From Microcoleaceae cyanobacterium (GTDB taxonomy: Bacteria > Cyanobacteriota > Cyanobacteriia > Cyanobacteriales > Microcoleaceae), in contig JBOFUV010000031.1 in NCBI GenBank assembly GCA_051652765.1, positions 1 through 25,260 of the forward strand: a DNA stretch of 25,260 nucleotides. The letters run 5' to 3'. The notes beneath the pieces are model-generated. The model saw nothing but the letters and a program-made list of their open reading frames with translations, searched no databases and was not told where the DNA came from. The position numbers and the translations under genes were made by a program. This document shows positions 8,001 to 24,395 of this stretch, piece by piece. How positions within the stretch are numbered: the first letter of the stretch is position 1; each line of letters starts with the position of its first letter.

Positions 8001-8860
8001 TAGACTCAGATCCAACTTATCGGTTGATTTGATGGCAACCGCGATCGCCTTCTGACTTCCCACCAAAATTACCAGCTTCTTGGCACGGGTAATCCTGGTG
8101 TAGACCAGATTCCGGCTGAGCATCATGAAATGCTGCATGTACAGAGGCAGAACCACCACCGGAAACTCACTGCCCTGACTTTTATGGATGGAGATGTTCC
8201 AGGCCAGAGAAATCTCATTCAAATCGGCGTAGTCATAAACCACGATCCTCTCCCTATACTGCACCTGAACTTCCTGTTCGACGGTATCAATTCCATGCAC
8301 CAAGCCCAAGTCCCCGTTGAACACCTCTCTTCCATAGTCGTTGGTCAGTTGGATACTCGGTCTCCCACCCGCAAAACTGCACCCCCTCGCGCCAGCTCAA
8401 CTTTCCCTGGTTCCGGTGGATTGAGCAACTGTTGCAATACCCGATTCAGGTTCCGGGTTCCGACCACGCCCCGAATCATGGGAGAAAGCAACTGCATTTG
8501 AGTTCGAGGATTGAAGCCCAACTTGGGGATGGAGATGCTGAAGATGATGGCACTTTGGGCCGCCTGCCGGAATACCTGCGTTAACCGCGCCACTGGGATC
8601 TGGGCAGAGTCGATTAAATCCTTCAACACACTTCCTGGCCCCACGCTGGGGAGTTGATCCACGTCCCCCACCAACAGCAATTGGGCATCCTTGCTGCCGA
8701 CAGCGGTTGCCAGATCCCTGGCTTTTGGGAGTTGAATGTGGGCCACGGTGTAGCCGGATTCTTCGGAGTGGGAGGTGATGCGCTCGACCACTCCGGTGAG
8801 GGTTTCGGTGTGAGAAGTGGTATTAATTGTTTTAGCAGAATATTGAGCTGGCTTGGACAT
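7959..8860 (-). pseudogene. recD2: Internally deleted, frameshifted RecD2/TraA-like SF1B helicase
   Basis: The N-terminal block (LTGVVERIT...SGYTV) is fused directly to [16 protein letters not shown] and [24 protein letters not shown] and RNLVYT.ITRAK follow in another frame. Walker A region missing. Confidence 0.85.
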
Positions 8861-8905
8861 TTTCTAGACTGGTTTCAAGCAAGAAACTTATAAAGAAAAA
8901 TTGAA

Positions 8906-11050
8906 ATGTTGAGTCTTGCAACTCACAAATTATCAGAACTCTGTTGCCGAAGTTCAATTGGCAAACTGTTGCCGGATGCCCTGTATGTTCATGTCTCTGC
9001 ATTGAACACCCTTGATCCCCAACTGCAAGATTATGAACGCCAAGCCCGACTGATTGCGGGAGAGATCCAACAGGCAACTCTGGTCAAGTTCAGTTTGAGT
9101 CAAGTCAAAGTTGCTTACTTATTCTACCCTGATTTCAATACTGATCCGCATCCTGCCCTACACCAAAGCATTCAGGTGAACTTGAATACGCTTCAAGCCA
9201 AGGTTCAAGATTTTAGTGATCGTGCCAATCCTCCCATTCTGCATCGCAAGGAAACCTTTGTTACCCCTGAATATCTGTACTACAAGCAGTTTTCCCACTT
9301 AACCCAACAGGAAGAGTCACTGGGATTGTTGGAGAATTCCCGCACCATCGGCACATTGAAGGGATGGTCACAGCGATTGCAGGAAAAGCGAATTGAGGTT
9401 CACGATCATTGTCTGGCTTGCCCTTTGACTGTTGCCGAACCTTCACCCCCCTTGGATCGCCCTGCCAACGTCAACTCCAACAGTGATTCTAATGATGGTT
9501 TTAATGGTGATTTTCATCAAAAGTCTGATCCTAAAATTGAGCGGCATAAGGCAGCCATTTTTCGGGTGGGGGCATCGAAGCCTGTGCGGTTGGGGTTGGA
9601 GGCAGGTTTGTTTGGAACTGTAACCACCTTCTTTGACTACGGTTGCGGTCATGGAGTGGACATTGAATTCATTCACCAGCAGGGTTATGTCAGTTCTGGC
9701 TATGACCCCTATTACCGACTGGATTCAGAACGGGTGGTGGCAGAGGTGGTGAATCTGGGCTATGTGATCAATGTGATTGAAGACCCAGCGGAACGACGGC
9801 AGGCGTTACTGAAAGCTTGGGAATTAACCCAGAAGGTGTTGATTGTGGCGGCTCAGGTGCTAATTGATGACCGTCGTTATGGGTCTATTGCTTATGGGGA
9901 TGGGGTGATTACCCGTCGGAATACGTTTCAGAAATATTACGAGCAGGAGGAACTCAAAGCCTACATTGACCAGGTGTTGGGAGTAGATGCGGTGGCGGTG
10001 GCCCTAGGGATTTACTTTGTGTTTCGGGATGAGGCTCAGGCGGAGAGTTTTCGGGCTTCACGGTTTCGGTCACGGGCCACTGCGCCGAGGGTACGGGCGG
10101 GCGTTAAGCGGTTTGAGGAGTACAAAGAACTGTTACAACCGTTGATGGACTTCTTCACGGAGCGGGGGCGATTGCCAACAGTGGCAGAGATTGAACCGGC
10201 TGAGTTTACCGCAGTCCAGGAACAGTTCGGTAGCCTGAAACGGGCGTTTCGGGTGGTGCTGCAAGCCACCGATGTAGAAGAGTGGGATGCTATCAGTGAG
10301 AAACGTCGTCAGGATTTGTTGGTGTATTTGGCCTTGAGTCAGTTTGGTCGTCGCCCCAAATTCAAAGATTTAACCCTTTCCACGCAGAATGACATCAAGG
10401 CATTGTTTGGAACCTATCAACAGGCTTGTGCCGCAGCGGATTTGATGTTGATGAGTTTGGGGAATCTGAAAATTCTGGGCAATCGCTGTCGCAGTAGTGA
10501 GGTGGGGCAGCAACATCAGAATTCCTTCTGGGTACATGTGTCGGCGTTGGAGCGACTTGATCCGCTGTTGCGGTTGTATGAAGGGTGTGCCTCTCGAACG
10601 ATTGGGCGACCGGAGGAGGTGACGGTAGTGCAATTTCATCTGAAATCGCCTCGGATTTCCTATCTCTTCTATCCCACATTTGATGCTGAACCCCATCCCA
10701 GGCTGCGAACCAGTATGCAGGTGGATCTGCAAACTGTGCAGGTACGGTATCAGGATTATGACCCCGAGGATAATCCACCGCTGCTGCACCAGAAGGAACA
10801 GGTTGTGGCTTCTGACTATCCCAATATTGAGAAGTTCATCAAGTTGAGCCAGCAGGAACGGAACTGGGGATTATTGGATGATTTGGATCGAATTCAGAAT
10901 TTACAGGGGTGGCAGAACTGTTTGGTGGAATATTGTGCCGAGTTGCGGGGGTATCGGGTGGTTTGGCGCAAAGATGCTGATCCCTATCGGGTGAAGGTTG
11001 TGAAATCGTTGCAGAGAAAACGAAGTACAAGAAGTGAAAATGGGGAATGA
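8906..11050 (+). CDS. DNA phosphorothioation-associated putative methyltransferase
   Basis: FFDYGCGHG SAM-binding motif, VVNLGYVINVIED, DGVIT.RNTFQKYY; duplicated YVHVSAL/YPDF..DPHP/NPP.LH.KE domain; dnd context. Confidence 0.85.
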   Translation: MLSLATHKLSELCCRSSIGKLLPDALYVHVSALNTLDPQLQDYERQARLIAGEIQQATLVKFSLSQVKVAYLFYPDFNTDPHPALHQSIQVNLNTLQAKVQDFSDRANPPILHRKETFVTPEYLYYKQFSHLTQQEESLGLLENSRTIGTLKGWSQRLQEKRIEVHDHCLACPLTVAEPSPPLDRPANVNSNSDSNDGFNGDFHQKSDPKIERHKAAIFRVGASKPVRLGLEAGLFGTVTTFFDYGCGHGVDIEFIHQQGYVSSGYDPYYRLDSERVVAEVVNLGYVINVIEDPAERRQALLKAWELTQKVLIVAAQVLIDDRRYGSIAYGDGVITRRNTFQKYYEQEELKAYIDQVLGVDAVAVALGIYFVFRDEAQAESFRASRFRSRATAPRVRAGVKRFEEYKELLQPLMDFFTERGRLPTVAEIEPAEFTAVQEQFGSLKRAFRVVLQATDVEEWDAISEKRRQDLLVYLALSQFGRRPKFKDLTLSTQNDIKALFGTYQQACAAADLMLMSLGNLKILGNRCRSSEVGQQHQNSFWVHVSALERLDPLLRLYEGCASRTIGRPEEVTVVQFHLKSPRISYLFYPTFDAEPHPRLRTSMQVDLQTVQVRYQDYDPEDNPPLLHQKEQVVASDYPNIEKFIKLSQQERNWGLLDDLDRIQNLQGWQNCLVEYCAELRGYRVVWRKDADPYRVKVVKSLQRKRSTRSENGE

Positions 11051-11124: not shown

Positions 11125-13260
11125 ATGGGGCTGAGAGATCTAACGCTGCGGAATCAGTACCGAAGCGATCAGTTCGCTAACGCGGAGGGTCAGGATTTAC
11201 TGGATGATTTTTATCTTCCTTGTTTAGCTCAAGCAATTTATTATGACCGGGCCGTTGGATTTTTCTCCAGCACCTCTTTGGCGCTGGCTGCTCAAGGATT
11301 AATAGCATTTGTTAGATCCAATGGCACAATGCGGTTGGTTGCCTCGCCTTGTCTTTCCCAGGAAGATATAGAGGCCATTGAAAAGGGGCTGAAGCACAGA
11401 CAAGATGTGATTACAGCTAGAATTACGTGGGAGCTTGAACAGGAATTGGAACAGGCGGTTCAGGATCGGTTGGCTTGTTTGGCTTGGTTACTGAGTCAAG
11501 GTTTTTTGGAAATTAAGCTAGCGGTACATCGTAACGTTCAGCAAAATGGCATCTATCACGAAAAGTTGGGCATCTTCACGGATGTAGCCGGGGATCAGGT
11601 GGTATTCACCGGGTCAGCCAATGAAAGTGCTCACGCTCTGATTAATAATTTTGAATGTATTGATGTGTTTCAGTCCTGGAAAGGTGCTGATCAGGAACGC
11701 ATTGCAGAAAAAGTTCTGAATTTTCAGCGACTCTGGCAAAATCAAACTCCAAATTTAGAGGTTTTAGAGTTTCCTGAAGCTGCCAGACGTTCCCTCCTGC
11801 GCCACTGCCCAGAACAGCCCCCAACTCAAGAACCGCGAGTTCGATCAACTGTCGGTAGTTATCAGTTCAATCCTTCAACCCTGTTAACTCAGCCTCCATC
11901 CGGAATTCCGATCTTACCCAACTGGTTAGAATTGCGTCTCTATCAGCAACAGGCCGTTGATAACTGGTTCGCTAACGACGGACGGGGAACCCTGAAAATG
12001 GCAACAGGGAGTGGAAAGACGATTACAGCCCTGGCAATCGCCGCAAAACTCTATCAAAAAATTCAGCTTCAGGCATTGATCGTGGTGTGCCCATTTCGCC
12101 ATCTGGTGAAACAGTGGGAACGGGAGTGTCGCAAGTTTGGACTGGAGCCAATCCTGGCCCATGAGAGCGTTCGGATTTGGTAAAAGGATCTCTCAACCCA
12201 ACTTTTAAGTGTTCGTTCGGGCTATCAACTTTTTGTGACGGTGATCACAACTAATGCCACGCTAATCAGTGAAGGATTCCAATCTCAACTTCAATTCTTT
12301 CCCAAGAAAACCTTAATCATTGGTGATGAAGCTCATAATCTGGGGGCAAAACGGTTGGAGACAAGTCTACCCCGCAATATTGGGTTGCGATTGGCGTTGT
12401 CTGCCACTCCTGAACGTTACTTTGATGAAGTGGGAACGGAGGCGTTATTAAACTACTTTGGGGACGTGTTGGAGCCAGAATTCACCCTCAAGGATGCCAT
12501 TCAGCAGGGGGCTTTAGTGCATTACTTGTACTATCCGATTCTGGTGGAACTGACAGAGCCGGAGATTAACATCTATGCAGAACTGACAGCCAAAATCGGT
12601 CGAGTCATTGCAACTGGAGGTGAAGATGAGGACAATGAAGCCTTAACTCCACTGTTGATGCAGCGGGCCAGATTAATTGGGGCGGCGACCAATAAGCTAG
12701 AAGCCTTGCGAAAACTTATGAGCAAACGACTCAACTCGACTCATACGCTAATTTATTGTGGGGATGGCAGGGTTGAGCATGAACCCAGCGAAGAGAGTCA
12801 GCGCCAACTGGAAGCCGTTGCCAAAATCTTAGGGTATGAACTGGGCTATCGAATTAATACTTATACGGCTGAGACGACGTTGGACGAACGGGAAGATTTG
12901 CGCCAACAGTTTGAGACTGGAGAACTGCAAGGGTTAGTGGCGATCCGATGTTTGGATGAGGGAGTGGATATTCCAGCAACCCGCACTGCAATTATTTTGG
13001 CCAGTAGTAGCAATCCTCGCCAATTCATTCAGCGTCGGGGCCGGATCTTACGTCCCTATCCCCATAAACAACGGGCAGAAATTTTTGACATGATTGTGTT
13101 GCCTCCGGATCTGGGGAGGGAATCATTAGAAATAGAGCGGAATTTACTTCGCAAAGAACTCAGGCGATTTGTTGAATTTGCTGATCTTGCCGATAATGCA
13201 GGGGAAGCCAGAATCAAACTCCTGGACTTGCAACGGCGTTATGGATTACTCGATATGTAG
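11125..13260 (+). pseudogene. Dnd-associated restriction enzyme (PLD nuclease + SF2 helicase) split by an in-frame stop
   Basis: YHEKLGIF...FTGSANES (PLD), MATGSGKT, DEAH, LSATP, QRRGRILR. ORFs 11125-12183 and 12235-13260 share a frame, with a single TAA at 12181-12183 between them. Confidence 0.88.
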
Positions 13261-13271
13261 CAGGAAACATC

Positions 13272-13448
13272 ATGGCAAAACCAAAGGAACTGACGAATCC
13301 AGACATTCAGGAACCCATTAAAACAGCCCCGACTGAAGTGAAAAAGATCATTACAGAAGTGCTGAAATTAGAAAAAGATCGACAATATCAACAGAGACCT
13401 CGTGTGAATGATGAAATCTTGGAGATTATCAAACAGGCAGTTCAGTGA
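13272..13448 (+). CDS. Small protein associated with Dnd/SMC-ATPase modules (58 aa, not in ORF track)
   Basis: MAKPKELTNPDIQEPIKTAPTEVKKIITEVLKLEKDRQYQQRPRVNDEILEIIKQAVQ. AGGA RBS; fills the gap between helicase and ATPase. Confidence 0.7.
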   Translation: MAKPKELTNPDIQEPIKTAPTEVKKIITEVLKLEKDRQYQQRPRVNDEILEIIKQAVQ

Positions 13449-13515: not shown

Positions 13516-15582
13516 ATGAAGCTAACTTCCCTCAGACTGTGTAACTTTCGGCAATTCTACGGTGAGACTTCTAAAATTAGTCTGGCCGCAGGTGAATCCC
13601 ACAAAATTACTGTTATCCATGGGAACAATGGTGGGGGTAAAACTAGTTTATTAAATGCTTTTATCTGGGTACTGTATGGAGATGGCAAATTCTCGGCGGC
13701 TTTTGCCTCTCCCGAACAACTGGTGAATAAACGGGCGATCGCTGAACGCACAGATCAAGAACCTGTTAAATGTTGGGTCGAAGTAGAATTTGAGCACGCT
13801 GAAAAACGTTACCGTATGCGGCGGCAGTGCCAATTTAATAACACTAGTAACTCCCTGAGTAAAAGTGAACTTCAGATTAAACTGATCCAACCTGATGGTA
13901 GCTACACCTCTCCACCTGGTGATCCAGAGGATGTAATTGGTCGGATTTTGCCTGTGAGCTTGCATCAATATTTTTTCTTTGATGGAGAACGCATTGAACA
14001 AATTGTGCGTTCCGATAAGAAAAAAGAAATTGCCGAAGCAACAAAAATTCTCCTGGGGATAGAAGTGATGAGTCGCTCCATTAGACATTTGGGCGATGCT
14101 TGCAAATCTTTGGAACAAGAATTAAAGAATATTGGTAGTCCAGAAACTCAAAAACTGTTACAGCAGAAACAAAAGTTGGGTACAGAAATTGAGGTTGCTC
14201 AAACTGAACAAGAAGGTATTGAGTCAGAACTGAAACACTTTGAGGAAATTAAACAAGAAACCAGCCAGCGATTGCGAGAACTAGATGCGGTCAAAGAAAT
14301 CCAACAACGGCGAGACAATTTGACGGAGCAACAGCGGGTCACACAAGATAAGTTTGATCAGAGTAAAAGTAAACTGAAATTAGCAGTTTCCACTAAAGGT
14401 TATACCGTGATGCTGACAGAGGCGATCGCCAAATTTCGGACTCTATCGGATGAGTTGCGCCAGCGGGGAGAGCTGCCAGCAGGTATCAAGCAACAGTTTG
14501 TAGAAGATTTGTTGGAGCAGAGACGCTGCATTTGTGGGGCTGAATTGTTGCCAGGAAAACAACCCCATAACCATGTCAAAGCCTATAAGGAAAAGGCGGG
14601 ATTGGCAGATGTGGAAGAAACTGTCATTAAGATGGGGGCGCAGGTAACCACTATTGATCAGCAAGTGCCTCAGTTCTGGCAGGAAATTGATCAGGAACAA
14701 GCCAATATTCATCAACTGAAAAACTCCCTTTCACAGATTGAAAGAGATTTAGATGAAATCCATGAAAAGCTTAAAAATAACCCAGTTGAGGATATTCGTC
14801 AGATTGAGACCAAGTTGAAGGAGCATGAAGACAAAATTAATGAACTGAATCAACAATTGGGGGCAAATCAGCAAATCATTAAAGATAGGGAAACTGAAAT
14901 TCAGCGACTCAGTGAAGAGATCAAAAAACTAGAACTTAAGGAAGAAAAGCAAGCCCTTACTCAACGACGGATTGCTGCAACAGAAGATGCAATTGCTCGG
15001 CTGAAAGAGGTACAGAATCGGATTGACAAAGTGTTTCGAGTTGAGCTTGAAAAGCGAGTTCAGGAGATTTTTGAGCCGATTGTTGCGGCTCCTTATGTCC
15101 CGAAACTGACTGAGAAATATGAGTTAACCCTGGTGGAAAGAACTACGGGTCAGGATTCTCCAGTTGCGGCTTCGACGGGAGAAAATCAGATTTTGAGTTT
15201 GTCTTTTATCTGCGCGATTATTGATCGGGTGCGGGAATGGAGTAAAGGTCAATCAGGACTGTTGATGGGGCCAGACAGCGGTACATTTCCGATGGTGATG
15301 GATTCTCCCTTTGGTAGCTTGGATGAAATTTACCGCAAACGAGTTGCACAATCCCTCCCAACTTTGGCCAATCAACTAGTAATTCTAGCGAGCAAGACCC
15401 AATGGCGGGGAGAGGTTGAAACGGAGATGCGACGTTATATTGGTAAAGAATATGTTCTGGTCTACAACTCACCCAAACTGGAGGAGGCAGGCGATCAGAT
15501 TGAACTCAGCGGAAAGTCCTATCCATTAGTTAGGTTGAGTCCGAATGAGTTTGAATATACTGAGATTTTAGCAGTGAGTTGA
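13516..15582 (+). CDS. SMC/Rad50-like ATPase (DndD-related, CxCG hook)
   Basis: GNNGGGKTS Walker A, YFFFDGE, long coiled coils, CICG, STGENQ signature, MDSPFGSLD Walker B/D-loop. Confidence 0.9.
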   Translation: MKLTSLRLCNFRQFYGETSKISLAAGESHKITVIHGNNGGGKTSLLNAFIWVLYGDGKFSAAFASPEQLVNKRAIAERTDQEPVKCWVEVEFEHAEKRYRMRRQCQFNNTSNSLSKSELQIKLIQPDGSYTSPPGDPEDVIGRILPVSLHQYFFFDGERIEQIVRSDKKKEIAEATKILLGIEVMSRSIRHLGDACKSLEQELKNIGSPETQKLLQQKQKLGTEIEVAQTEQEGIESELKHFEEIKQETSQRLRELDAVKEIQQRRDNLTEQQRVTQDKFDQSKSKLKLAVSTKGYTVMLTEAIAKFRTLSDELRQRGELPAGIKQQFVEDLLEQRRCICGAELLPGKQPHNHVKAYKEKAGLADVEETVIKMGAQVTTIDQQVPQFWQEIDQEQANIHQLKNSLSQIERDLDEIHEKLKNNPVEDIRQIETKLKEHEDKINELNQQLGANQQIIKDRETEIQRLSEEIKKLELKEEKQALTQRRIAATEDAIARLKEVQNRIDKVFRVELEKRVQEIFEPIVAAPYVPKLTEKYELTLVERTTGQDSPVAASTGENQILSLSFICAIIDRVREWSKGQSGLLMGPDSGTFPMVMDSPFGSLDEIYRKRVAQSLPTLANQLVILASKTQWRGEVETEMRRYIGKEYVLVYNSPKLEEAGDQIELSGKSYPLVRLSPNEFEYTEILAVS

Positions 15583-15583
15583 G

Positions 15584-16240
15584 ATGATTGAAGTTCTGAG
15601 CAAATCTCCAAAATTCATTACGGATGCTTGGGTCAAATCAACCTGGGAAGAATTTCTGCGGTTCGCTGACCAAAACGAATTGCAGCGAGGGAAGTTTTAT
15701 TATGATCAGAACTTGATGAGGATTGAAATGTTACCGATTGGGCCGCTGCATGGACATGATAATTCTGTAATTGCCAGAACAATTAGCCTGTTTGCAACTT
15801 TGAATAACATTCCGATTATGGAGTATTTGAATACGAGTTTTCGACATCCTCAAGTCCGGGAGTGTCAACCCGATGTGGCCTACTACATTGGTTCAGAATT
15901 GAAGTTGCCGCCCCGGAATGATAGCCCTGTTGATGTGACTGAATTCGAACCACCGACTCTGGTTGTGGAAGTTGCTTCAACAACGCTGAATGATGATCTG
16001 GGGCGGAAACGATTGCTCTATGAGCGGTTGGGAGTTCAGGAATATTGGGTGGTGGATGTGAAGGCGGGAGAGGTGATCGTGTTTGCGGTGGCGGATGGGG
16101 GGAGTAAGCAAGTTCAGGAATCGCAGGTGTTGCTCGGTTTGGGGTTGGAGATTGTGTTGGAGGCGTTGCAGCGGGGTCAAACGGAGGATGATGGGGCGGT
16201 GAATCGGTGGTTGTTAGAAATTTTTAGTAAGGTGAAGTAA
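15584..16240 (+). CDS. Uma2 (DUF820) family endonuclease
   Basis: QPDVAYYIG, PTLVVEVA, KRLLYERLGVQEYWVVDV. Confidence 0.9.
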   Translation: MIEVLSKSPKFITDAWVKSTWEEFLRFADQNELQRGKFYYDQNLMRIEMLPIGPLHGHDNSVIARTISLFATLNNIPIMEYLNTSFRHPQVRECQPDVAYYIGSELKLPPRNDSPVDVTEFEPPTLVVEVASTTLNDDLGRKRLLYERLGVQEYWVVDVKAGEVIVFAVADGGSKQVQESQVLLGLGLEIVLEALQRGQTEDDGAVNRWLLEIFSKVK

Positions 16241-16314
16241 TGGCAGATATACGGGTTAGGATTGCAAAAGATAAGGCGAAGTTAGTCAAAGAGTTGAGAG
16301 CTTCAGAGAGGTGA
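16240..16314 (+). pseudogene. N-terminal stub resembling DNA phosphorothioation-associated protein 4
   Basis: MADIRVRIAKDKAKLVKELRASER*, coupled to the upstream gene by a TAATG overlap. RIAKDKA.LVK resembles the cyanobacterial family N-terminus (from recall). Confidence 0.55.
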
Positions 16315-16357
16315 AGACTATCAGAATGAATTTGATTTAACTCAGTTTCTCTAAGCA

Positions 16358-16990
16358 ATGTTTGACTCTGGAAAGCATAAAAAGCCCACGCAAATTGAGA
16401 TCTTGAGTTACTACACCTACAAATTCATGCGGGTTCGGGTGGATCGAGCTTGGGGAATTGCACCACACAAACCGATTTTGCTATTATCCGTGATTGAACT
16501 CATTCGACGTGAAATTATCACAGAAAACAAGATTTTTCTCACTTCAGAACTGATTACAACATTCCTAAAATACTGGCTTTACTTCGGCTCTGAAAATCAT
16601 AATCCTGATATTTCCCGTCCTTTCTTTTTTATGCGAAGCGGGAAGTTTTGGCATCTCTGGCCGAATCCGGGTTACTCAAAGTTATTGGCTTCAAAAGTCA
16701 AGTTGAAAACTTTTGCAGAAGTAGATCGAGCGGTTAAATATGCTTATCTAGATGAAGATTTATTTGACCTGCTGCAAATTCCCAAGACCAGAGCCAGTCT
16801 AATTTTAGCATTGACAATTCAATGGTTTAAAGGTCAGCATGAATTAATTGAAGTTGTTTCTCAAATCGATTTACCATCTGAATTGCAGCACCGTTCAGAT
16901 TATCGGTGTTTAGTTACTCTCGGAAAAATTCTCTCAGAAACCCATGAACAAAAATCTCGGTTACTACATTGGGAAATTTACGAAACTTAG
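16358..16990 (+). CDS. Stand-alone sulfur-binding-domain (SBD)-like protein, paralogous to the N-terminus of the next gene
   Basis: RVDRA...APHKPILLLSVI, FL.YW, PFFFMRSGKFWHL.PNPG, YAYLDEDLFDLL; no HNH motif. Confidence 0.7.
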   Translation: MFDSGKHKKPTQIEILSYYTYKFMRVRVDRAWGIAPHKPILLLSVIELIRREIITENKIFLTSELITTFLKYWLYFGSENHNPDISRPFFFMRSGKFWHLWPNPGYSKLLASKVKLKTFAEVDRAVKYAYLDEDLFDLLQIPKTRASLILALTIQWFKGQHELIEVVSQIDLPSELQHRSDYRCLVTLGKILSETHEQKSRLLHWEIYET

Positions 16991-17918
16991 AGTAGATCGC
17001 GCAACCGGGAATCCTGCACCTCATAAACCCGTATTGCTCTTATCAGTCATTGCTTTGATTGAACAGAACATAATCCATAGAAATCGGTTTTATTTAACTC
17101 CAGAATTGATTGCAAAGTTTCTAGAGTCCTGGACAGATTTAGACATTACTTCCCATCGCTCAGATATTTCTTTGCCATTTTTTCATCTACGAGGAGATAG
17201 CTTTTGGCATTTAACCCCCAATCCAGGCTATGAAGCTGTGATTCATTCAAAGTCTAAAATCAAAGGATTAAAAGCAGTTAGAAATGCGGTTCAATATGCT
17301 TTTCTAGATGATGAATTATTTGAGTTGCTGCAGGATCAAGATGCCAGAGCAATTCTAGTTCATACTTTAATTGAAAACTGGTTCTCTGGAAAAACAGTTC
17401 AAGTGGATGGTTTATTGAAAGTTGATTCTCTGCAAAAATTACAACTGGTTTTGAGAGAAAAAGGAGGAGAAGTTTATGACACCAGTATTCTGGAAGATGA
17501 ACAGAAATTAATTGTTCGAGATGCCGCATTCCGAAGATTAGTCACTCAAATTTATGAACATCGCTGCGCCCTTTGTCGCTTGAAAATTTTTGATAACAAA
17601 AGCCAAACAATTGTCGATGGCGCACACATTAAACCCTTTGCTGAATTCCGAGATGATCGCATTGATAACGGTTTATCCCTCTGCAAAAACCATCACTGGG
17701 CCTTTGATCGGGGCTGGTTCAGTGTGGATGATTCCTACAATGTCATTGTTTCTAACGATTTGCATGAAGATTCACCGAATGCTAAAGAAGTTAAGGAGTT
17801 CCAGGAAGAAAGGATTTTATTACCCAGCAATTCTGATTATTTTCCCCGAACTGAAGCACTCGCATGGCATCGAGAGAATGTTTTTAACGAGGGACAGCCG
17901 CCAATTTTGTACTATTAA
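16944..17918 (+). CDS. SBD-HNH endonuclease (putative phosphorothioate-dependent restriction enzyme)
   Basis: N-terminal APHKPVLLLSVI/PFFHL SBD-type domain. C-terminal RDAAFR, CALC, GAHIKPF, NGLSLCKNHHWAFDRG HNH. Confidence 0.85.
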   Translation: MNKNLGYYIGKFTKLRVDRATGNPAPHKPVLLLSVIALIEQNIIHRNRFYLTPELIAKFLESWTDLDITSHRSDISLPFFHLRGDSFWHLTPNPGYEAVIHSKSKIKGLKAVRNAVQYAFLDDELFELLQDQDARAILVHTLIENWFSGKTVQVDGLLKVDSLQKLQLVLREKGGEVYDTSILEDEQKLIVRDAAFRRLVTQIYEHRCALCRLKIFDNKSQTIVDGAHIKPFAEFRDDRIDNGLSLCKNHHWAFDRGWFSVDDSYNVIVSNDLHEDSPNAKEVKEFQEERILLPSNSDYFPRTEALAWHRENVFNEGQPPILYY

Positions 17919-17996
17919 CACTGAAAAATCAAGGCTTGGTTTTATGAAAAGATCAAGTTAGGTCTGGAGAGAGTTAAGCTTAGGTTTGATCCAAGA

Positions 17997-18133
17997 TCAA
18001 CTTGAACATGAAGTAAGTTCAACCTGAACTTGATCTAAAATCAACTTGAACATGAAGTAAGTTCAATCTGAGCTTGATCTAAAGTCAACCTGAAGATGGA
18101 GTAAGTTCAACCTGAACTTGATCTAAAGTCAAC
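17997..18133. repeat. Tandem repeat, 3 x 44 bp (22-bp sub-period)
   Basis: Units start at 17997, 18041 and 18085; consensus TCAACYTGAACATGAAGTAAGTTCAACCTGAACTTGATCTAAAR. Confidence 0.9.
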
Positions 18134-18190
18134 GGGAAGTTAATACCAGAGCTGCACTAGAAATATTCTCTTCCATCAAAGAATGGAAGA

Positions 18191-18442
18191 TTAGGTCGGA
18201 TTATCATCATTGGAGCCATTAAAGTCGCTCATATAAAGCCTCCTAAACTCTGCTGCTGCATCGGGGTTCAATTTCTCTAATGCTGCCAGAATATTCATGA
18301 CTGTTTCAGAACCCGGATCTCGGATCTCATTTGCCCATCGGTAAACATTAGACACACCAATTCCCATGACCCCGGCCAGTTTTCCCTGACTGATACCGTG
18401 GCTCTGCATCACCGTTTTCAGAACTCGCCCTGCTTTCCCCAT
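18191..18442 (-). CDS. XRE-family HTH transcriptional regulator
   Basis: LKTVMQSHGISQGKLAGVMGIGVSNVYRWANEIRDP is a Cro/C1-type HTH. Confidence 0.88.
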   Translation of the reverse strand: MGKAGRVLKTVMQSHGISQGKLAGVMGIGVSNVYRWANEIRDPGSETVMNILAALEKLNPDAAAEFRRLYMSDFNGSNDDNPT

Positions 18443-18506
18443 CGCTTTTTAACATGGCTTAACCCAAGCAAGATCAATCGTGTCAGAGCTTTGCGTCTTC
18501 GTATAC

Positions 18507-18550
18507 AGTCCAAATGGACTATGGTATTCTATTCATAGACTAAATGGACT
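18507..18550. promoter_or_regulatory. Two operator-like sites flanking an extended -10 in the divergent promoter region
   Basis: Palindrome AGTCCAAATGGACT (18507-18520), variant AGACTAAATGGACT (18537-18550), and TGGTATTCT between them. Confidence 0.55.
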
Positions 18551-18599
18551 GTGACAGTTTAATGTGACAGTTCTTCCTTTCTGTTTAGGAGTACTGGAA

Positions 18600-18845
18600 A
18601 TGTTCATAGATAGAGATTCTTTAGGCGATTCGAGTCAGCCACCCGAAGGCAATTTTGCCGAATTTTCTCCAAGTGGAGAGCCTGTAAAAATGACCTTGAT
18701 CGGCACTCGTAAAACCGTTGATGTCATAGTTAGGCTGCTTCACCGACATAACATCATTTCTGGTAGCGAATGGAGCCGTCCAGTTCCGTTCAGGAATTCT
18801 GATGAGGTGATCAGCGTTGCCAGTCGAGTAGTTCAGGTTGATTAA
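18600..18845 (+). CDS. Small hypothetical protein divergent from the XRE regulator
   Basis: AGGAG RBS before ATG 18600; VKMTLIG...LH......SEWSRPVP pattern of small cyanobacterial proteins. Confidence 0.65.
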   Translation: MFIDRDSLGDSSQPPEGNFAEFSPSGEPVKMTLIGTRKTVDVIVRLLHRHNIISGSEWSRPVPFRNSDEVISVASRVVQVD

Positions 18846-18870
18846 AAACTGCACAGACGAAAGCAATAAT

Positions 18871-18906
18871 TTCAGGGGCAGATTCGAGCAACGATCTGTC
18901 CTTGAA
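18871..18906 (+). other. 13-bp RNA hairpin upstream of the Argonaute gene
   Basis: TTCAGGGGCAGAT / ATCTGTCCTTGAA. Both mismatches are G-U pairs on the + strand. No U-tract follows. Confidence 0.5.
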
Positions 18907-19098
18907 CTGATGGAAAATATTCAGTTTTTAACCGAGGAAATCCAAGCCCTGTAAACCCTGGATTGGGTTTTGACTATCTGGTGAACAAGACTTTGGTTAA
19001 GTTTTCTAGAAATACTGTTCCATCAAGTTGGATTTGAAGTCAAACAGGTACTAAAATTACTAAAGTTCAATGCATAAGCCAAAGGATTTCATATTCCC

Positions 19099-21300
19099 AT
19101 GACACCCTCGCCAAGTTTTGAAAAGACCTCGATTGTGTTAAATCGTTTTTTTGTTAAGCAATTGAATACTCAGGATTGCACAGTTTATGAATATAGCTGT
19201 GCTTTTAAACAAAATCCAGAGCAGGGGGATGAGCAGAGAGAAATTGCTAGTGTATGCTACAAAGTTGGAGTAACTGCGGTCAGACTAGGAAATAAAATTA
19301 TCACTAAAGAACCTGTTGAGTCAGATAAAATGCGGAGCGGTGATTGGGAGTTAAAGGGAGTAGGGACAAGAATATTAAGCTGCGGAAATCCTATTGAGAG
19401 AAAAGCATTAGAAAGCTTTGAGCGGAAACAGCTAGAGTACGGACTAAGAAATTGGTCAAATAAAACTGCTGTTGAAAAAGCTCCTGAAGGTGGACTGATT
19501 TGGTGGATTGCTGGTGGCGAAGGGAAGGAGAAGTCTGGTGATGGTTGGGAAATTCATAGGGGAAGAAGAGTAGATATTGTTATTGACTCTGAAGGTAAGC
19601 TTTACTTAGAGATTGATATACATCATCGTTTCTACACTCCTTGGACACTTCACCAATGGCTAGAGCAATATCCTGATATTCCGATCAACTATGTGCGAAA
19701 TAAATACAAAGATCAGAACAATAACTATATTAGTTGGCGTTATGAGGATATTTCTGATAAAACACCAGATAAGGTGTTGATAGAAGATTTAGGAACCACA
19801 TTGGCTGATTATCATCGCAAACATGGGGCGACAGAGCAAGAAATCCAAAACTCTCATGTTGTTTATGTAAAAAAAGCCAATCAACGGAATGCCAAATTGT
19901 TACCTCATCTCTCTCAAAGGTTATCGCCTAGTCTGACAATGGAGATGCTAGCAAATGTTGCGGAACAGTCTGGGAAGCAAGAAAGTGATAACATTCAAGA
20001 AGTTTTTAATTGCATCAAAAAGAGCTTAGATTTCCGTCTGAAAGAGTCAGGAAAAACTGCTCGACGAATCCTTAATAGGATATACAAAGTTCCTGTTGCT
20101 TCAGAAGCCCTGATAGTTGATGGATATATTTTGCCAAGTGCAAACTTGGTTGCACTCAGTGGATCAGTGAAAAAAGCTGGTGAAGTTCGTTACAAGGGCT
20201 GTGTCAAAGTTGGAGAGACTGATTTTGGTTGCCTCAATCTACTTGATGATCGGCATAAGTATCCTGATGAGGTGAGTAAGTGTATAAGAGAAGTGGCACA
20301 AAAAAGTAATGCACAGATCAATATTGATTCTTATCGAACATTAAATCAATTACCTGAAGGCTCGCTTGATCGGCAAATGTTTTGGCAAGAGTGGGCGAAT
20401 AAAGGAATAAATACAGTTTTGGTAGTTATGCCTCGGTCACCTAATAAGCGTAAGCAGCAAATTAGAGTTGAGGCATTGCAAGCTGGTATTGCCACTCAAT
20501 TTATAGTACCTCAGCCAAAAGCTGATGCTTATAAAGCGATGAATGTAGTATTAGGTTTACTATGCAAAGCAGGTTGGCAGCCTGTACGTTTAGAGCCACT
20601 TGATCATCTTGAAGCCGCAGACCTAATTATTGGTTTTGATACGGGTACAAACCGTGAACTTTATTATGGTACTTCAGCTTTTGCCGTATTAGCAGATGGA
20701 CAAAGCTTAGGTTGGGAACTTCCTGATGTGCAGAGAGGAGAAAGTTTTTCAGGATCAGGAGTTTGGCAAACCGTTTCTAGACTTATTATCAGATTTCATC
20801 AGGTTTGTGCTCGTTATCCTAAAAAGCTTTTGTTAATGAGAGATGGATTAGTTCAAGAGGGAGAGTTTGAACCAACTATCAAGGCGTTACAAGAGAAGGA
20901 TATTGCTGTTGATATTGTAGGAGTACGAAAAAGCGGAGCAGGCAGAATGGGACATGAAGTTATCCAAGGCCAAGAAGTGATATATCGTGATGCACAAAAG
21001 GGAAGTGTTGTATTTACCCCAAAAGAGCGCTCCTTCACTCTAGTAACAACTCAACCCGTTAGTAGAAATATTGGAAGTGTCAGACCTCTGAGAGTTGTAC
21101 ACGAGTACGGGAATACATCTCTTGAGTTATTGGCTCTACAAACTTACCATCTTACTCAATTACATCCTGCAAGTGGTTTCAGTTCTTGTCGATTACCTTG
21201 GGTACTTCATCTAGCCGATAAAAGCAGTAAGGAATTTCAACGTATTGGTCAAATTAGTGTCCTTCAAAACTTAAATCGAGAAAAGCTAATTGCTGTTTAA
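19099..21300 (+). CDS. ago: Long prokaryotic Argonaute (SeAgo-like) with intact catalytic tetrad
   Basis: 733 aa. MID motifs GIATQF and NVVLGLLCKAG. PIWI motifs IIGFD(514), RGE(548), LLMRD(582)G, VRKSG, RLPWVLHLAD(707). C-terminus KLIAV. Closely resembles Synechococcus elongatus Ago as recalled. Confidence 0.95.
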   Translation: MTPSPSFEKTSIVLNRFFVKQLNTQDCTVYEYSCAFKQNPEQGDEQREIASVCYKVGVTAVRLGNKIITKEPVESDKMRSGDWELKGVGTRILSCGNPIERKALESFERKQLEYGLRNWSNKTAVEKAPEGGLIWWIAGGEGKEKSGDGWEIHRGRRVDIVIDSEGKLYLEIDIHHRFYTPWTLHQWLEQYPDIPINYVRNKYKDQNNNYISWRYEDISDKTPDKVLIEDLGTTLADYHRKHGATEQEIQNSHVVYVKKANQRNAKLLPHLSQRLSPSLTMEMLANVAEQSGKQESDNIQEVFNCIKKSLDFRLKESGKTARRILNRIYKVPVASEALIVDGYILPSANLVALSGSVKKAGEVRYKGCVKVGETDFGCLNLLDDRHKYPDEVSKCIREVAQKSNAQINIDSYRTLNQLPEGSLDRQMFWQEWANKGINTVLVVMPRSPNKRKQQIRVEALQAGIATQFIVPQPKADAYKAMNVVLGLLCKAGWQPVRLEPLDHLEAADLIIGFDTGTNRELYYGTSAFAVLADGQSLGWELPDVQRGESFSGSGVWQTVSRLIIRFHQVCARYPKKLLLMRDGLVQEGEFEPTIKALQEKDIAVDIVGVRKSGAGRMGHEVIQGQEVIYRDAQKGSVVFTPKERSFTLVTTQPVSRNIGSVRPLRVVHEYGNTSLELLALQTYHLTQLHPASGFSSCRLPWVLHLADKSSKEFQRIGQISVLQNLNREKLIAV

Positions 21301-21315
21301 TCAAATTACGGATAT

Positions 21316-21627
21316 CGCCTCTCCGCTGGGGAGAAACAAATGTTGGCAATTTCTCTGCTGTGGGGACTGGCTCGCGCATCAGGTCGTCAATTACCCATTG
21401 CGATTGATACGCCGCTCGGTCGGTTAGATTCATCGCATCGGCATAACTTAGTGGAAAAATATTTCCCAACAGCTAGCCATCAAATGATTTTGCTATCTAC
21501 GGATACAGAAATTGGCCCTGTTGAAGTTCAGCAATTGAGAAAGGAAGAGGCCATTTCCCATGAATATTTATTGAAGTATGATCCTAAGTTACGCCAGACT
21601 GTTGTGGAGTCGGGATATTTCTGGTAA
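21316..21627 (+). pseudogene. dndD: 3' remnant of DNA sulfur modification ATPase DndD
   Basis: RLSAGEKQMLAISLLWGLARASGRQLPIAIDTPLGRLDSSHR..LVEKYFPTASHQMILLSTDTEI...GYFW is the DndD C-terminus. Walker A and coiled coil are absent. Confidence 0.9.
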
Positions 21628-21715
21628 CGTGGAGGTCATTTGTAATCCGTAATAGCAACCTGGATTGTGGATTAAGTGAAGAATGACTCTGCTAATGATC
21701 AGATGTTTTGTAGCC

Positions 21716-22051
21716 TTAACCAACCGCAAAACCATCATATTGACGCATGAAAGGGGAATGATAGGCTAAAACGATATCTGCCTTAGGAATGCCAGATTCA
21801 GTTAATTCGTTAGCTACTCCAACCTCCGTACCATCATACTGAACCCAAATTTTCTCACCCTTCAAATCAATATGAATCAGAGCCCCATAAACACGTCTTT
21901 TCTGTAACCAACCCGCCCTCAAAACTTGATAGCGATCGCGCTCATGATCAAACAAAACTCCCATCTCAATCTCACCAAAAGCAGGTTGAATTTGGCTATG
22001 GGCGAGGAGAACTTCTTGAATAATTTTGCGATATTGAGTTACTTTATCCAT
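21716..22051 (-). CDS. xisI: XisI family protein
   Basis: FDHERDRYQV...GW...RVYGALIHIDLKGEKIWVQYDGTE.GVANEL...GIPKADIVLAYH.P..RQY.GFAVG. Confidence 0.93.
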   Translation of the reverse strand: MDKVTQYRKIIQEVLLAHSQIQPAFGEIEMGVLFDHERDRYQVLRAGWLQKRRVYGALIHIDLKGEKIWVQYDGTEVGVANELTESGIPKADIVLAYHSPFMRQYDGFAVG

Positions 22052-22452
22052 TGTAAAATCTTCTCCTCTTCTACATCATAAATGAGCAGATAAAGCTGAT
22101 ATTCCCTTACCCCCTCCTCGATAAATCTAAGACGAAAGAATTCATCATAAGTCTGGCTAGGTACTGCAAGATAAAGGATTCTTGCCGGATCTTGAACTCG
22201 CAATGCTCGTCGGTAGTTCAGGTACTGCCCCACTGCACCGTGAAATTCAGAAATGGCTGAGGGATTTGTAAAACTCTTAATCTCTACAGCAATTTTCTCT
22301 GCACCTCGTTCAGCAGCGAGTAAGCGTTCGGCACCCAAATCAATTTGCATCTGTACCTCCCCATAATCTATCGGAAAGGGGTCATGGGTAATCTGCCATC
22401 CATCTATAATTAGAGCATCTTTGACAAGATAGTGAAACACATCTTTCGCCAT
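22039..22452 (-). CDS. xisH: XisH family PD-(D/E)xK protein
   Basis: MAKDVFH..VK.AL..DGWQITHDP, IDLGAE, KIAVEIKSF, FH.AVGQYLNYR; overlaps xisI. Confidence 0.93.
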   Translation of the reverse strand: MAKDVFHYLVKDALIIDGWQITHDPFPIDYGEVQMQIDLGAERLLAAERGAEKIAVEIKSFTNPSAISEFHGAVGQYLNYRRALRVQDPARILYLAVPSQTYDEFFRLRFIEEGVREYQLYLLIYDVEEEKILQWIK

Positions 22453-22497
22453 GTGATGTTTCAATTCTGAAAAAAGCTATAGCAACCTAATTTTATT

Positions 22498-22890
22498 ATG
22501 GAACCGCCAATCGACCGAATCAAACTCTCTCAAACTGCAAAAGATCAACTGATCAAACTGAAGCGAGTCACCAAGATTGATCAGTGGAATATTCTCTGTC
22601 GCTGGGCACTCTGCCGTTCACTGGCTGAACCGACACCCCCCTCCGCGATTCCAATTCCAATGGATAGCAACGTTGAAATGACCTGGCAAGTTTTTGGGGG
22701 CAACATCGCCGATTTACTTGTAATTTCCCTGAAGCAACGTTGCTATAACGATGGTTTATCAACGGATCAAGAAACTTTGGCTGAACAGCTTAAACTGCAT
22801 CTTCATCGAGGGATTGGTTACTTAGCAGGGGATTCTAATCTCAAAACCATTGAGGATTTTGTAGCGCTTGCAACTAAGAATAATTCGTAA
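22498..22890 (+). CDS. dndE: DNA sulfur modification protein DndE
   Basis: IKLSQTAKDQLIKLKRVTKIDQWNILCRWALCRSLAE, SNVEMTWQVFGG, LHLHRGIGYL. Confidence 0.93.
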   Translation: MEPPIDRIKLSQTAKDQLIKLKRVTKIDQWNILCRWALCRSLAEPTPPSAIPIPMDSNVEMTWQVFGGNIADLLVISLKQRCYNDGLSTDQETLAEQLKLHLHRGIGYLAGDSNLKTIEDFVALATKNNS

Positions 22891-23125
22891 GTTCATATTT
22901 TCCATCTGCGATCCTTTTGAAATACTTTGGCTGAATCGAATCCTTTCGCTTCATTCCCTCACAACGCCGCTCAATTGCTCCTCGAACCATTCCTCTTGGA
23001 TCTTTCGTATTAAAACTATATAGATTCTGATCAGTGATACTCTGAGTGATTTCAGAAGCAGTCAAAGGCTTTTGAGCCTGTGTTAGAACTTCGATGGCAG
23101 CTTGAGCAATTGTTCGCTTTTCCAT
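22874..23125 (-). CDS. Small HARE-HTH-like winged-helix protein
   Basis: TIAQAAIEVLTQAQKPLTASEITQSITDQNLYSFNTKDP pattern. Start placed at MEKRT (23125). Confidence 0.7.
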   Translation of the reverse strand: MEKRTIAQAAIEVLTQAQKPLTASEITQSITDQNLYSFNTKDPRGMVRGAIERRCEGMKRKDSIQPKYFKRIADGKYELTNYS

Positions 23126-23138
23126 TGTTTCTTGAAAG

Positions 23139-24395
23139 TTAAATTTCATCAAACAATAGTAGCTGCTCGCTGCCATCTGGTAACACATGGGGTAACAGTT
23201 TATCGCCTTGGTATTCCGTTCCATCCCACTTGTCTGGCCAAGTGTTTGCCTCGATCAATTCATAAATTCGAGCTAGTTCTTCAGGGTTAATTAAACTGAC
23301 TTCCGATTGATTCAATGCTGTAGCTGCTTGATTTACTTCTGTTTGAATCTGTAAGATTTGCTCTAAAAAATGTTGCCGAGCCTCCATGTGTAACGGCCCT
23401 AGCCGCCCCTGTTTTGCTGCCAATGTCCCATCCTTATTCGTTTCTCGAAACTTCCGCAGTCGATGGTGGGGCTTTTTCATTTCCCGATACAACGGGCGTA
23501 ACTTTCGCAATGGCGCTAAATATTCCCAGCCCTCAGACTTGATAACGGTCTCTAACGCCCGATCTTCCTCCACTAGAGGACAACCAATACAACCCGTTCG
23601 GAGATTTAAAGGTTCTTCTTTCTCAGTTCCTTCAGAACTCATGCCGTAGACCAAAGCGACTTCCTCAGTGGGAAATCCCAAACCCGGAGCCTCAAACATT
23701 AACCAATCCCAAACATTACAGATCCGCCAATGGATTAGGGGTGCTAAAACATCTGCCACCGCTGCCGATGACGTGTGTTGGAACCAGCCTTGACCGCATT
23801 CGCCCCCATCCTTAGAACAACTTAAAGCAATTCGGCGATCCCTAGCTGCACTTTCTCCAATTCTCACCCCAGTCATCCAGAGAAACTTTTCTCCTCGCTC
23901 CTGTCGCAAGTTTTCTAATTCATGCTCCATGCTCATAATTTTGAGCTTTGGCGTACACCAACGAAAGGTATTACTGGGAGGTGGAACCCCCCGACCCAGC
24001 ATGTACACAAAGAAGCGATGATCTAGCCTTGGATAGACAATCCGAGTATCAAACCCTCGCTGTTTTAGCTCCCGCAAAATTCCTAGGGCCGAAGCGTGGA
24101 GTGGTGGTAATTCCTGACGAGTATCGGCGTAAATTACCGATAAACACTCAGGCTGAGGAATCTGACCTGTCTGAATCAAGTGAGCTACTAAAGTTACCGT
24201 TGCCGAGGAGTCCTTGCCGCCGGAAAAGGCGATCACCCAGTGTTTGTAGAGGGAACCGTAGTAACGCAGGGACTCAACCGAAAGTTCTATGCTTTCAGCC
24301 ATTGTCAACCGTTCATCTTCAAATAAAGTTGGACTTGCCATTGTTACCGATGACCTGCAGACCTGATTGTTAATTGCTTGGCTCAGAGCTACCAT
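23139..24395 (-). CDS. PAPS-reductase-family PP-loop protein (DndC-like)
   Basis: AFSGGKDS PP-loop, ADTRQELP, RWCTPKLKI, GVRIGESAARD, RTGCIGCP cysteine motif. Confidence 0.85.
   Translation of the reverse strand: MVALSQAINNQVCRSSVTMASPTLFEDERLTMAESIELSVESLRYYGSLYKHWVIAFSGGKDSSATVTLVAHLIQTGQIPQPECLSVIYADTRQELPPLHASALGILRELKQRGFDTRIVYPRLDHRFFVYMLGRGVPPPSNTFRWCTPKLKIMSMEHELENLRQERGEKFLWMTGVRIGESAARDRRIALSCSKDGGECGQGWFQHTSSAAVADVLAPLIHWRICNVWDWLMFEAPGLGFPTEEVALVYGMSSEGTEKEEPLNLRTGCIGCPLVEEDRALETVIKSEGWEYLAPLRKLRPLYREMKKPHHRLRKFRETNKDGTLAAKQGRLGPLHMEARQHFLEQILQIQTEVNQAATALNQSEVSLINPEELARIYELIEANTWPDKWDGTEYQGDKLLPHVLPDGSEQLLLFDEI

Follow-up and report, generated by a model that had tools for sequence, protein, structure and literature searches.

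Whether a prokaryotic Argonaute (pAgo) whose gene lies inside a DNA phosphorothioation (PT) locus works together with the PT genes around it or has displaced some of them is the question raised by a 25,260-bp stretch of DNA from a Microcoleaceae cyanobacterium (GenBank assembly GCA_051652765.1, contig JBOFUV010000031.1). This stretch, here called the window, is an entire contig (C31) of a 5.04-Mb draft genome (labeled G000) that comprises 158 contigs and is 99.97% complete, with an estimated contamination of 0.18%. Close to the pAgo gene are genes for putative PT-sensing proteins that carry a sulfur-binding domain (SBD), in one case joined to an HNH nuclease domain (SBD-HNH). A preliminary description of this DNA had left the choice between a swap of defense modules and a functional coupling of pAgo to the PT-associated nucleases. 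Our analysis indicates that a horizontally acquired solo long-A pAgo of the TtAgo/SeAgo type probably overwrote the PT-writer core of a decaying Dnd-Pbe locus in a one-off replacement.

RESULTS

An intact long-A Argonaute gene

The pAgo gene (positions 19099 to 21300, plus strand) is an open reading frame (ORF) of 2,202 bp whose 733 codons are free of stops, with the stop codon at 21298 to 21300. Its product matched the PADLOC pAgo model over residues 10 to 733 (970 bits) and the Pfam family PAZ_3 (E = 4e-28), and a phmmer alignment laid residues 8 to 731 on residues 5 to 683 of the TtAgo chain 3dlb (E = 6e-67; approximately 30% identity). Taken together, these matches cover a full N-PAZ-MID-PIWI architecture. 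In the TtAgo alignment, residues D514, E548, D582, and D707 stand opposite TtAgo D478, E512, D546, and D660, which we take to be the catalytic residues; the 733-residue protein with a DEDD tetrad that had been described previously is thus confirmed. Among the structure matches was a deposited chain titled "TtAgo (D546N)." In the MID domain, a hand count in the same alignment placed K452, R456, Q467, and K490 opposite TtAgo R418, K422, Q433, and K457, presumably the contacts of the 5' phosphate of the guide. By sequence and by analogy, the protein most likely acts in the manner of SeAgo, TtAgo, and CbAgo, that is, by small-DNA-guided cleavage of invader DNA that is independent of PT.

The Argonaute gene is bracketed by remnants of dndC and dndD

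On the plus strand at positions 21316 to 21627 lies a 3' remnant of dndD, which extends from the ABC signature motif through the stop codon and, in an alignment across the junction, is 85% identical to residues 564 to 666 of DndD from a genome of the same genus (G002). Its match to TIGR03185 (21316 to 21621; 168.8 bits) covers profile positions 551 to 650 of 650, and 15 bp separate it from the pAgo stop codon, just as had been noted in the preliminary description. On the other side, a dndC 5' remnant of 40 codons, equivalent to approximately codons 7 to 43, occupies positions 18853 to 18972 (plus strand). This remnant was first spotted in a six-frame comparison of the spacer at 18443 to 19098 with the 5' end of G002 dndC; tblastn with the N terminus of G002 DndC against an 800-bp subject gave 21 identities in 43 positions (E = 8e-8). 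It can be aligned with the N-terminal motif that is conserved among 13 DndC proteins of cyanobacteria, stops just short of the GYSGGKDS PP-loop, and carries an in-frame stop codon (18952 to 18954) and a deletion of three codons. Between the end of the dndC remnant and pAgo are 126 bp (18973 to 19098) that contain the left junction of the insert. This spacer resembles none of the flanks of 19 pAgo homologues, and no flanking DNA beyond the coding 3' end is common to the pAgo junctions of the window and the 19 homologue loci.

Since pAgo is enclosed by the dndC 5' remnant on one side and the dndD 3' remnant on the other, in the correct order and orientation, the insert would consist essentially of a lone pAgo gene, with a predicted length of at most 2,343 bp (18973 to 21315) made up of the 126-bp spacer, the 2,202-bp ORF, and the 15 bp that precede the dndD remnant. 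As judged from these alignments, the stretch that was replaced demonstrably extends from about codon 44 of dndC to about codon 550 of dndD, and pAgo has the same orientation as the old operon. No other copy of DndB, DndC, DndD, or SBD-HNH was found in the genome, in which the other match to the DndD profile is PbeC.

We considered the possibility that the assembly is at fault and that an AT-rich pAgo segment was misjoined from a contaminant or from elsewhere in the genome. The pAgo gene is atypical in its G+C content (39.6% versus 46.1% for the genome, within the lowest 3.4% of 2.2-kb windows), and a draft of 158 contigs leaves room for such errors. However, the sequences on either side are what is left of two neighboring genes of a single operon and keep their proper order and direction; a chimera would have to involve two exact misjoins separated by 2.3 kb; contamination is low (0.18%); and neither a second pAgo copy nor a second copy of the deleted dnd parts was found in the assembly. 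An artifact of this kind is therefore extremely improbable.

A locus of the same genus retains the PT writer

A DNA search of 40 relatives identified contig C51 of G002, which together with G001 represents the same genus, as the orthologous locus in the orientation of the window. The first part of this locus encodes the methyltransferase, PbeA (721 aa, intact), PbeC, a 219-aa ORF, Uma2, and dnd_assoc_4; the middle part encodes a helix-turn-helix (HTH) protein (opposite strand), an 84-aa ORF, and DGQHR and HNH proteins (opposite strand); and the last part encodes DndB (489 bits), DndC (670 bits), DndD (607 bits; 666 aa), DndE, and a DndC-like protein. The comparison with a sister locus that the preliminary description had suggested thus yielded one with dndB-dndC-dndD-dndE intact and without pAgo. 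The flanking DNA of the window and G002 is 76 to 88% identical; this similarity breaks off at approximately position 16300 and is found again from precisely 21316 onward, where the ABC signature motif of dndD lies. No pAgo match came from G001 or G002 with the query that detected the gene in G000 and in 10 genomes of a 400-genome phylum sample, and no true DndC was found in G001. With regard to the proposed swap of dndB, dndC, and the 5' part of dndD, the remnants and the intact genes of G002 bear out the portion from dndC codon ~44 to dndD codon ~550; a former dndB in this lineage would be conjectural, as most of the cyanobacterial SBD-HNH loci described below have no dndB match.

Homologues of the Argonaute are solo genes in unrelated contexts

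Loci of pAgo homologues were collected from 185,579 species genomes (8 loci; 68 to 71% identity), from a phylum sample of 400 other genomes, 25 of which belong to the same family as G000 (10 loci; 38 to 70% identity), and from metagenomes (3 contigs; a fourth, identical to L017, was left out). The survey therefore covers one pAgo clade and one phylum sample. Some of these 21 loci are clipped at contig ends, and L021, L051, and L052 have common neighbors and are not independent. The nearest homologues (68 to 71% identical) are from Aphanocapsa, Nostoc, Chamaesiphon, and Pseudanabaena records, and all close relatives are cyanobacterial. Together with the XisH/XisI and Uma2 genes of the window, this gives the genome a cyanobacterial appearance. 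In the phylum sample, pAgo was present in 10 of the 400 genomes and in none of the 25 genomes of the family. This patchy distribution, together with the low G+C content of the gene, points to horizontal acquisition of pAgo, as far as sequence comparison can indicate it. A plasmid origin was considered and rejected: the 28 PLSDB records matched by tblastn were from Thermus (27) and Hydrogenophilus (1), with no cyanobacterial record among them and with identities that all stayed under 60%, and among the matches listed the identity was approximately 30%.

The 21 loci were scanned by tblastn with 34 query proteins from the window and the G002 locus. Not one of them contained dnd, pbe, SBD-HNH, dnd_assoc_4, or methyltransferase genes near the pAgo homologue; the sole matches were stray Uma2, HNH, or orf93 hits that lay kilobases away. 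Pfam families assigned to the 47 ORFs flanking pAgo in 18 loci included ribonucleotide reductase, TrmD, RimM, RNase III, a carboxysome shell protein, PdxJ, ketol-acid reductoisomerase, and CobN, and neither a Cas4/PDDEXK family nor a recurring partner was present among these ORFs. Among the phylum-sample genomes with pAgo (n = 10), DndC was present in 1, on another contig, and SBD-HNH in none. The expectation that neighborhoods with dnd, SBD-HNH, or pbe would recur around pAgo was accordingly disappointed in all 21 homologue loci. On the basis of gene content, the clade is of the solo type, a bare gene that appears to move into unrelated chromosomal contexts.

SBD-HNH is a regular member of cyanobacterial Dnd loci

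Upstream of the dndC remnant, and where they had been placed by the preliminary description, are the two SBD genes of the window, both on the plus strand; dndE and a DndC-like gene likewise lie downstream as described. The first SBD gene (16358 to 16990) encodes a stand-alone SBD protein of 210 aa that shares 48% identity with the SBD of the SBD-HNH protein. The second (16944 to 17918) encodes SBD-HNH, a putative PT-sensing endonuclease of 324 aa that matched SBDHga (8h0l) by phmmer (E = 3e-24) and the Pfam family HNH_2 over all 66 profile positions (1 to 66); its NF045808 score of 136 bits is under the cutoff for that model (180 bits). In the 8h0l alignment, SBD-HNH keeps the PHK and LPF motifs, which contain the HK and P sulfur-contact positions; the roles of these residues of the sulfur cavity (H-K/R and P) were taken from Liu 2018.

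Homologues of SBD-HNH were found in 58 of the 400 genomes, although 3 of the 58 were weak HNH-only matches, and the neighborhoods examined covered 57 sites in 55 genomes, with approximately 20 kb of DNA at each (loci L083 to L139). The dndC gene adjoins SBD-HNH in 45 of the 57 loci, 39 of the 57 have full-length dndC and dndD, and none contains pAgo. The recurring gene order is pbeA, pbeC, (Uma2), dnd_assoc_4, (dndB), SBD-HNH, dndC, dndD, dndE, (methyltransferase), and a dndB match is absent from most of the 57. DndC scored above the TIGR03183 cutoff (290 bits) in 50 of the 55 SBD-HNH-positive genomes compared to 111 of the 400 genomes overall (Fisher P = 9e-27, a value that is overstated because related genomes are not independent). 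The locus with the best SBD-HNH match (59% identity; G334) has the order Uma2, dnd_assoc_4, SBD-HNH, HTH (opposite strand), and dndC-D-E, and the tandem of SBD-only, SBD-HNH, and HTH genes was seen again in G054 and G292. Because dndC stands beside SBD-HNH in 45 of 57 loci, SBD-HNH is best described as a native resident of the Dnd locus that, by this comparison of loci, did not arrive with pAgo. Association of SBD(wHTH)-HNH, HKD-helicase, and HARE-HTH nucleases with Dnd modification genes has been reported as general (Rakesh et al. 2024, PMC10853773), and for mostly non-cyanobacterial enzymes an association of <3.6% has been given (Lutz et al. 2020, PMC7461809). In cyanobacteria, a nuclease that reads PT is normally found together with the genes that write it, in contrast to the figure of Lutz et al. 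and in agreement with Rakesh et al.

Side observations on these loci concern the SBD paralogue and dndC. A stand-alone SBD paralogue of approximately 165 to 210 aa, which has no nuclease domain, directly precedes SBD-HNH in G000 (16358 to 16990), G054 (L097, 11930 to 12421; 65% identical), and G292 (L136, 10538 to 11032; 57% identical), and partial SBD-only copies occur in L107 and L138. In L136 (G292:C12), an IS200-like transposase ORF and tandem repeats fill the dndC slot (7363 to 8940) within an architecture of SBD, SBD-HNH, HTH, and orf93, followed by dndD and dndE, as in the window; G292 represents an independent loss of dndC.

These surveys bear directly on the proposal that pAgo and the PT nucleases are coupled, in which SBD and SBD-HNH would cleave invader DNA that bears PT and the ends so produced would supply guides to pAgo, in a two-step system of sensing a foreign mark and then clearing the DNA under guide direction. 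The genes are on the same strand within 4.4 kb, with no plus-strand terminator-like site called from SBD-HNH to pAgo; SBD-HNH is full length and keeps its sulfur-contact HK and P positions; the frequency of DndC in related cyanobacteria (111 of 400 genomes and 25 of 25 of the family) implies that PT-marked foreign DNA should be common; and it is reported that long-A pAgos take up guides that other nucleases generate at DNA ends (Bobadilla Ugarte 2025, PMC12094033). On the other hand, the pairing does not recur (PT genes at 0 of 21 pAgo loci, pAgo at 0 of 57 SBD-HNH loci, and SBD-HNH in 0 of 10 pAgo-positive genomes), SBD-HNH is part of this type of Dnd locus and was not recruited with pAgo, and any nuclease that makes double-strand breaks could feed pAgo, so that the synergy would be generic and not dedicated. 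Such coupling is thus improbable, and the interest that had been attached to SBD and SBD-HNH as companions of pAgo falls away, since in the 57 loci, as in the account of Rakesh et al., they are ordinary residents of Dnd loci. A related scheme, in which the loss of the writer would leave SBD and SBD-HNH free to attack PT-marked DNA from dnd-positive relatives while pAgo, in the slot and under the regulation of the dnd genes, would load guides from the breaks, would amount to a mirror-image, two-layer defense at its birth; we consider it highly improbable. In agreement with the preliminary description, full-text searches of the literature, which turned up reviews and the PT papers cited here, yielded no account of a pAgo-PT system, and the word "Argonaute" occurs zero times in the article by Rakesh et al.

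Probable loss of the PT writer and decay of the Pbe module

Since no intact DndC or DndD was found anywhere in the 99.97%-complete genome, Dnd-type PT writing appears, from gene content, to have been lost in this cell. Of the components of the Dnd PT module, DndC and DndD are not intact and DndE is present. DndC scored above the cutoff in all 25 sampled genomes of the same family. The dndE gene (22498 to 22890, plus strand) is an intact orphan (TIGR03184, 129 bits against a cutoff of 72 bits; 85% identical to G002).

The four-gene PbeABCD module does not have its integrity either. The pbeA gene ("dnd_restrict_1"; PLD/HKD plus SF2 helicase; 11125 to 13260, plus strand) is broken: its N and C halves match the PADLOC PbeA model separately (388 and 412 bits), and an in-frame TAA at 12181 to 12183 takes the place of a Q codon in the G002 orthologue. 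A single tblastn high-scoring segment pair with the intact 721-aa PbeA of G002 spans this stop, and the remainder of the 713-residue alignment is 86% identical. The gene for PbeC, a DndD-like SMC/ABC ATPase (13516 to 15582, plus strand; PADLOC PbeC, 973 bits; 87% identical to G002), is intact. Between the two lies a candidate pbeB of 58 aa (13272 to 13448, plus strand), a conserved ORF that has 59 aa at the same place in G002. Its conservation and its size, near that of the 66-aa PbeB (Xiong 2019), suggest that it is pbeB. There was no match in the window to dnd_assoc_4 (TIGR04062), which comes after Uma2 in G002 and is present in most of the cyanobacterial loci; by its size and place, dnd_assoc_4 is possibly PbeD. 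No PADLOC model matched the candidate PbeB or dnd_assoc_4.

According to Xiong et al. (2019, PMC6459918), all four PbeABCD genes are needed for defense, and in the system described there PbeABCD is active solely with PT and harmless without it. Because Pbe depends on PT, the nonsense codon in pbeA and the absence of dnd_assoc_4 fit relaxed selection. We also considered whether the loss of PT made Pbe autotoxic and so selected for the pbeA stop; this was ruled out, since Pbe without dnd is reported in the same source to be neither toxic nor active. The SBD and SBD-HNH proteins would then be leftovers of the PT locus, which as putative PT-sensing nucleases may still act against PT-marked foreign DNA.

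The number of lesions in this region (the pbeA nonsense codon, the dndC and dndD remnants, an XisHI insertion, and a RecD2 fragment) also raises the possibility that pAgo is a silent passenger, an intact ORF that is unexpressed or nonfunctional and simply the latest junk in a dismantled locus. There is no adjacent ACE1/Cas4 gene and no convincing promoter upstream, where matches were below the shuffle mean. A promoter and terminator scan of positions 17900 to 22600 as a whole gave matches at or under the shuffle expectation and was uninformative; it included one weak promoter-like match near the 126-bp spacer, below the chance level, and, weak as the scan is, it called no terminator-like site on the plus strand from SBD-HNH to pAgo, including the stretch between the dndC remnant and pAgo. 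Because pAgo has the orientation of the operon and no terminator-like site was called before its start, transcription that starts in the former upstream region of dnd is plausible, and pAgo may be transcribed off the former dnd operon promoter. Several observations are at odds with a silent passenger: the 733-codon ORF has no stops and keeps its four catalytic residues while the dead neighbors already carry stops, the homologues of the clade are solo everywhere, which makes the absence of a partner normal, and the gene follows the former upstream region of dnd and points the same way as the operon. A silent passenger is therefore unlikely.

Other genes of the locus

The dndC remnant, the insertion of XisH and XisI, the pbeA nonsense codon, and the normal membership of SBD-HNH in Dnd loci had been missed in the preliminary description. 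The XisI (21716 to 22051; Pfam XisI, E = 2e-41) and XisH (22039 to 22464; Pfam XisH, E = 5e-53) genes lie on the minus strand between the dndD remnant and dndE. Their insertion interval is 21641 to 22480, G002 has no such pair between dndD and dndE, and there are 4 to 5 further matches to XisH/XisI paralogues in the genome. Next to dndE is a HARE-HTH ORF of 116 aa (22874 to 23224, minus strand; Pfam HARE-HTH, E = 2e-8), located within a stretch of approximately 259 bp that is missing from G002 (a blastn gap). The ORF runs into the 3' end of dndE on one side and that of the DndC-like gene on the other, being read in a frame different from that of the latter, and could be what remains of a HARE-HTH nuclease like those that Rakesh et al. 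list for Dnd loci. The DndC-like gene (23139 to 24395, minus strand) encodes a PAPS-reductase-family protein of 418 aa that is not a true DndC (TIGR03183, 150.7 bits against a cutoff of 290 bits) and is 27% identical to G002 DndC; its orthologues adjoin dndE in G002 (88% identical) and in L136 (68% identical). In three genomes, this gene is convergent to dndE (the window; L016, 769 to 1971; and L136, 3802 to 4998), followed in G292 by the PT-associated methyltransferase.

Between SBD-HNH and the dndC remnant lies a divergent pair of small genes. The HTH protein (83 aa; 18191 to 18442, minus strand) has a 51% identical homologue at the same place in G002, and homologues are located 3' of SBD-HNH in L091, L097, L099, L107, and L136 and 5' of it in L112. 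Its partner, orf93 (18564 to 18845, plus strand), is a small conserved ORF with weak homologues adjoining the HTH gene in L112 and L136. Divergent pairs of an HTH gene and an ORF of 84 to 104 codons (window, 18191 to 18845; L016, 9268 to 9875) occupy a variable slot in several loci, between dnd_assoc_4 or SBD-HNH and dndB or dndC, and are possibly a local regulator.

At the left, the Uma2-family putative endonuclease gene (15584 to 16240, plus strand; Pfam Uma2, E = 9e-27) is the final gene before the breakpoint relative to G002. The dnd_rel_methyl gene, for a PT-associated putative methyltransferase (8906 to 11050, plus strand; TIGR04096, 842 bits), is 77% identical to its G002 orthologue. 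A RecD2-type helicase fragment of 171 codons (8345 to 8860, minus strand) aligns with a 713-position profile in two short segments and is a further island remnant. The final ~318 bp of the contig (24943 to 25260) are repeated at 95% identity on C156 of the same genome, and this repeat probably caused the contig break.

DISCUSSION

The replacement is envisaged as follows. A lone pAgo gene would have landed in a Dnd-Pbe operon and erased most of dndC and dndD, upon which PT writing would have stopped and dndE would have been orphaned. The PT-dependent Pbe module would then have decayed, the SBD and SBD-HNH readers would have persisted without a resident writer, and pAgo would load small DNA guides and cut complementary invader DNA without PT.

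Certain features of the data weigh against this account. The G002 locus and the window differ throughout 16301 to 21315 and not in the pAgo stretch alone: where G002 has dnd_assoc_4, HTH, DGQHR, HNH, and dndB, the window has SBD, SBD-HNH, HTH, and orf93. Given this difference over the whole interval and the identity of only 51% between the HTH proteins, there must have been at least one further exchange, and G002 cannot be taken as an unaltered "before" state. At 40 codons, the dndC remnant is short, and one alignment underlies it. The SBD genes are equally as AT-rich (38.7% G+C) as pAgo (39.6%), which would also suit a joint import. The absence of a PT association is drawn from 21 loci at 37 to 71% identity, which are partly nonindependent (L021, L051, and L052). 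In weighing these points, we considered whether the whole block of ~5 kb (16301 to 21315) might be foreign, with an SBD-HNH incompatible with the resident dnd genes; this was rejected in view of the adjacency of dndC to SBD-HNH in 45 of 57 loci and by the dndC remnant downstream of it. Replacement by pAgo could have been reached by either of two routes, namely, within this lineage itself or by recombination of the 16301-to-21315 block from a donor in which pAgo was already part of the locus.

The window does not hold a new kind of system; a module swap is supported, and a dedicated pAgo-PT system is not. It offers a natural example of defense-gene turnover at single-gene resolution, in which a solo Argonaute appears to have erased the two catalytic genes of an operon and the aftermath is visible as an orphan dndE, a Pbe module with a nonsense codon, and PT-reader nucleases without a writer. 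It also serves as a caution that adjacency in a defense island does not equal functional linkage.

Among known systems, the window pAgo most resembles the stand-alone long-A pAgos TtAgo, SeAgo, and CbAgo, which are DNA-guided DNA endonucleases, in that it has the same tetrad, PAZ_3, and no partner in 18 homologue loci; its cyanobacterial homologues are 59 to 71% identical. Unlike those proteins, it landed inside another defense operon and destroyed it. For SeAgo, a restriction of transformation and of plasmid maintenance has been reported (PMC10653904). With APACE1, in which a long-A pAgo is paired with the Cas4-family nuclease ACE1 (Bobadilla Ugarte et al. 2025, PMC12094033), it has in common that the long-A pAgo is cyanobacterial and keeps its tetrad intact, but no ACE1/Cas4 gene is located beside it or among the neighbors in the 18 homologue loci. 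Elsewhere in the genome there are Cas4/PDDEXK-family ORFs at G000:C133:31793-32524 (a frame of 281 codons) and G000:C32:8575-9090, and the reported average length of ACE1 is 278 aa; it is a matter of speculation that these ORFs could aid in the processing of pAgo guides.

The surrounding locus corresponds to DndBCDE-PbeABCD (Xiong et al. 2019, PMC6459918) in its pbeA, candidate pbeB, pbeC, dndE, and methyltransferase genes in their usual order. It differs in that dndC and dndD are remnants of 40 and ~100 codons, pbeA has a stop, and dnd_assoc_4 is missing, and as a PT writer it appears to be dead. The window SBD-HNH shares its SBD and HNH_2 domains with the type IV enzymes ScoMcrA, SprMcrA, and EcoWI, and its dependence on PT is predicted. 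It is unlike that group in having only these two domains, with no SRA/SAD, in being preceded by an SBD paralogue, and in scoring below the NF045808 cutoff. Like the SBD/wHTH-HNH nucleases of Rakesh et al. (2024, PMC10853773), it is embedded in a Dnd locus.

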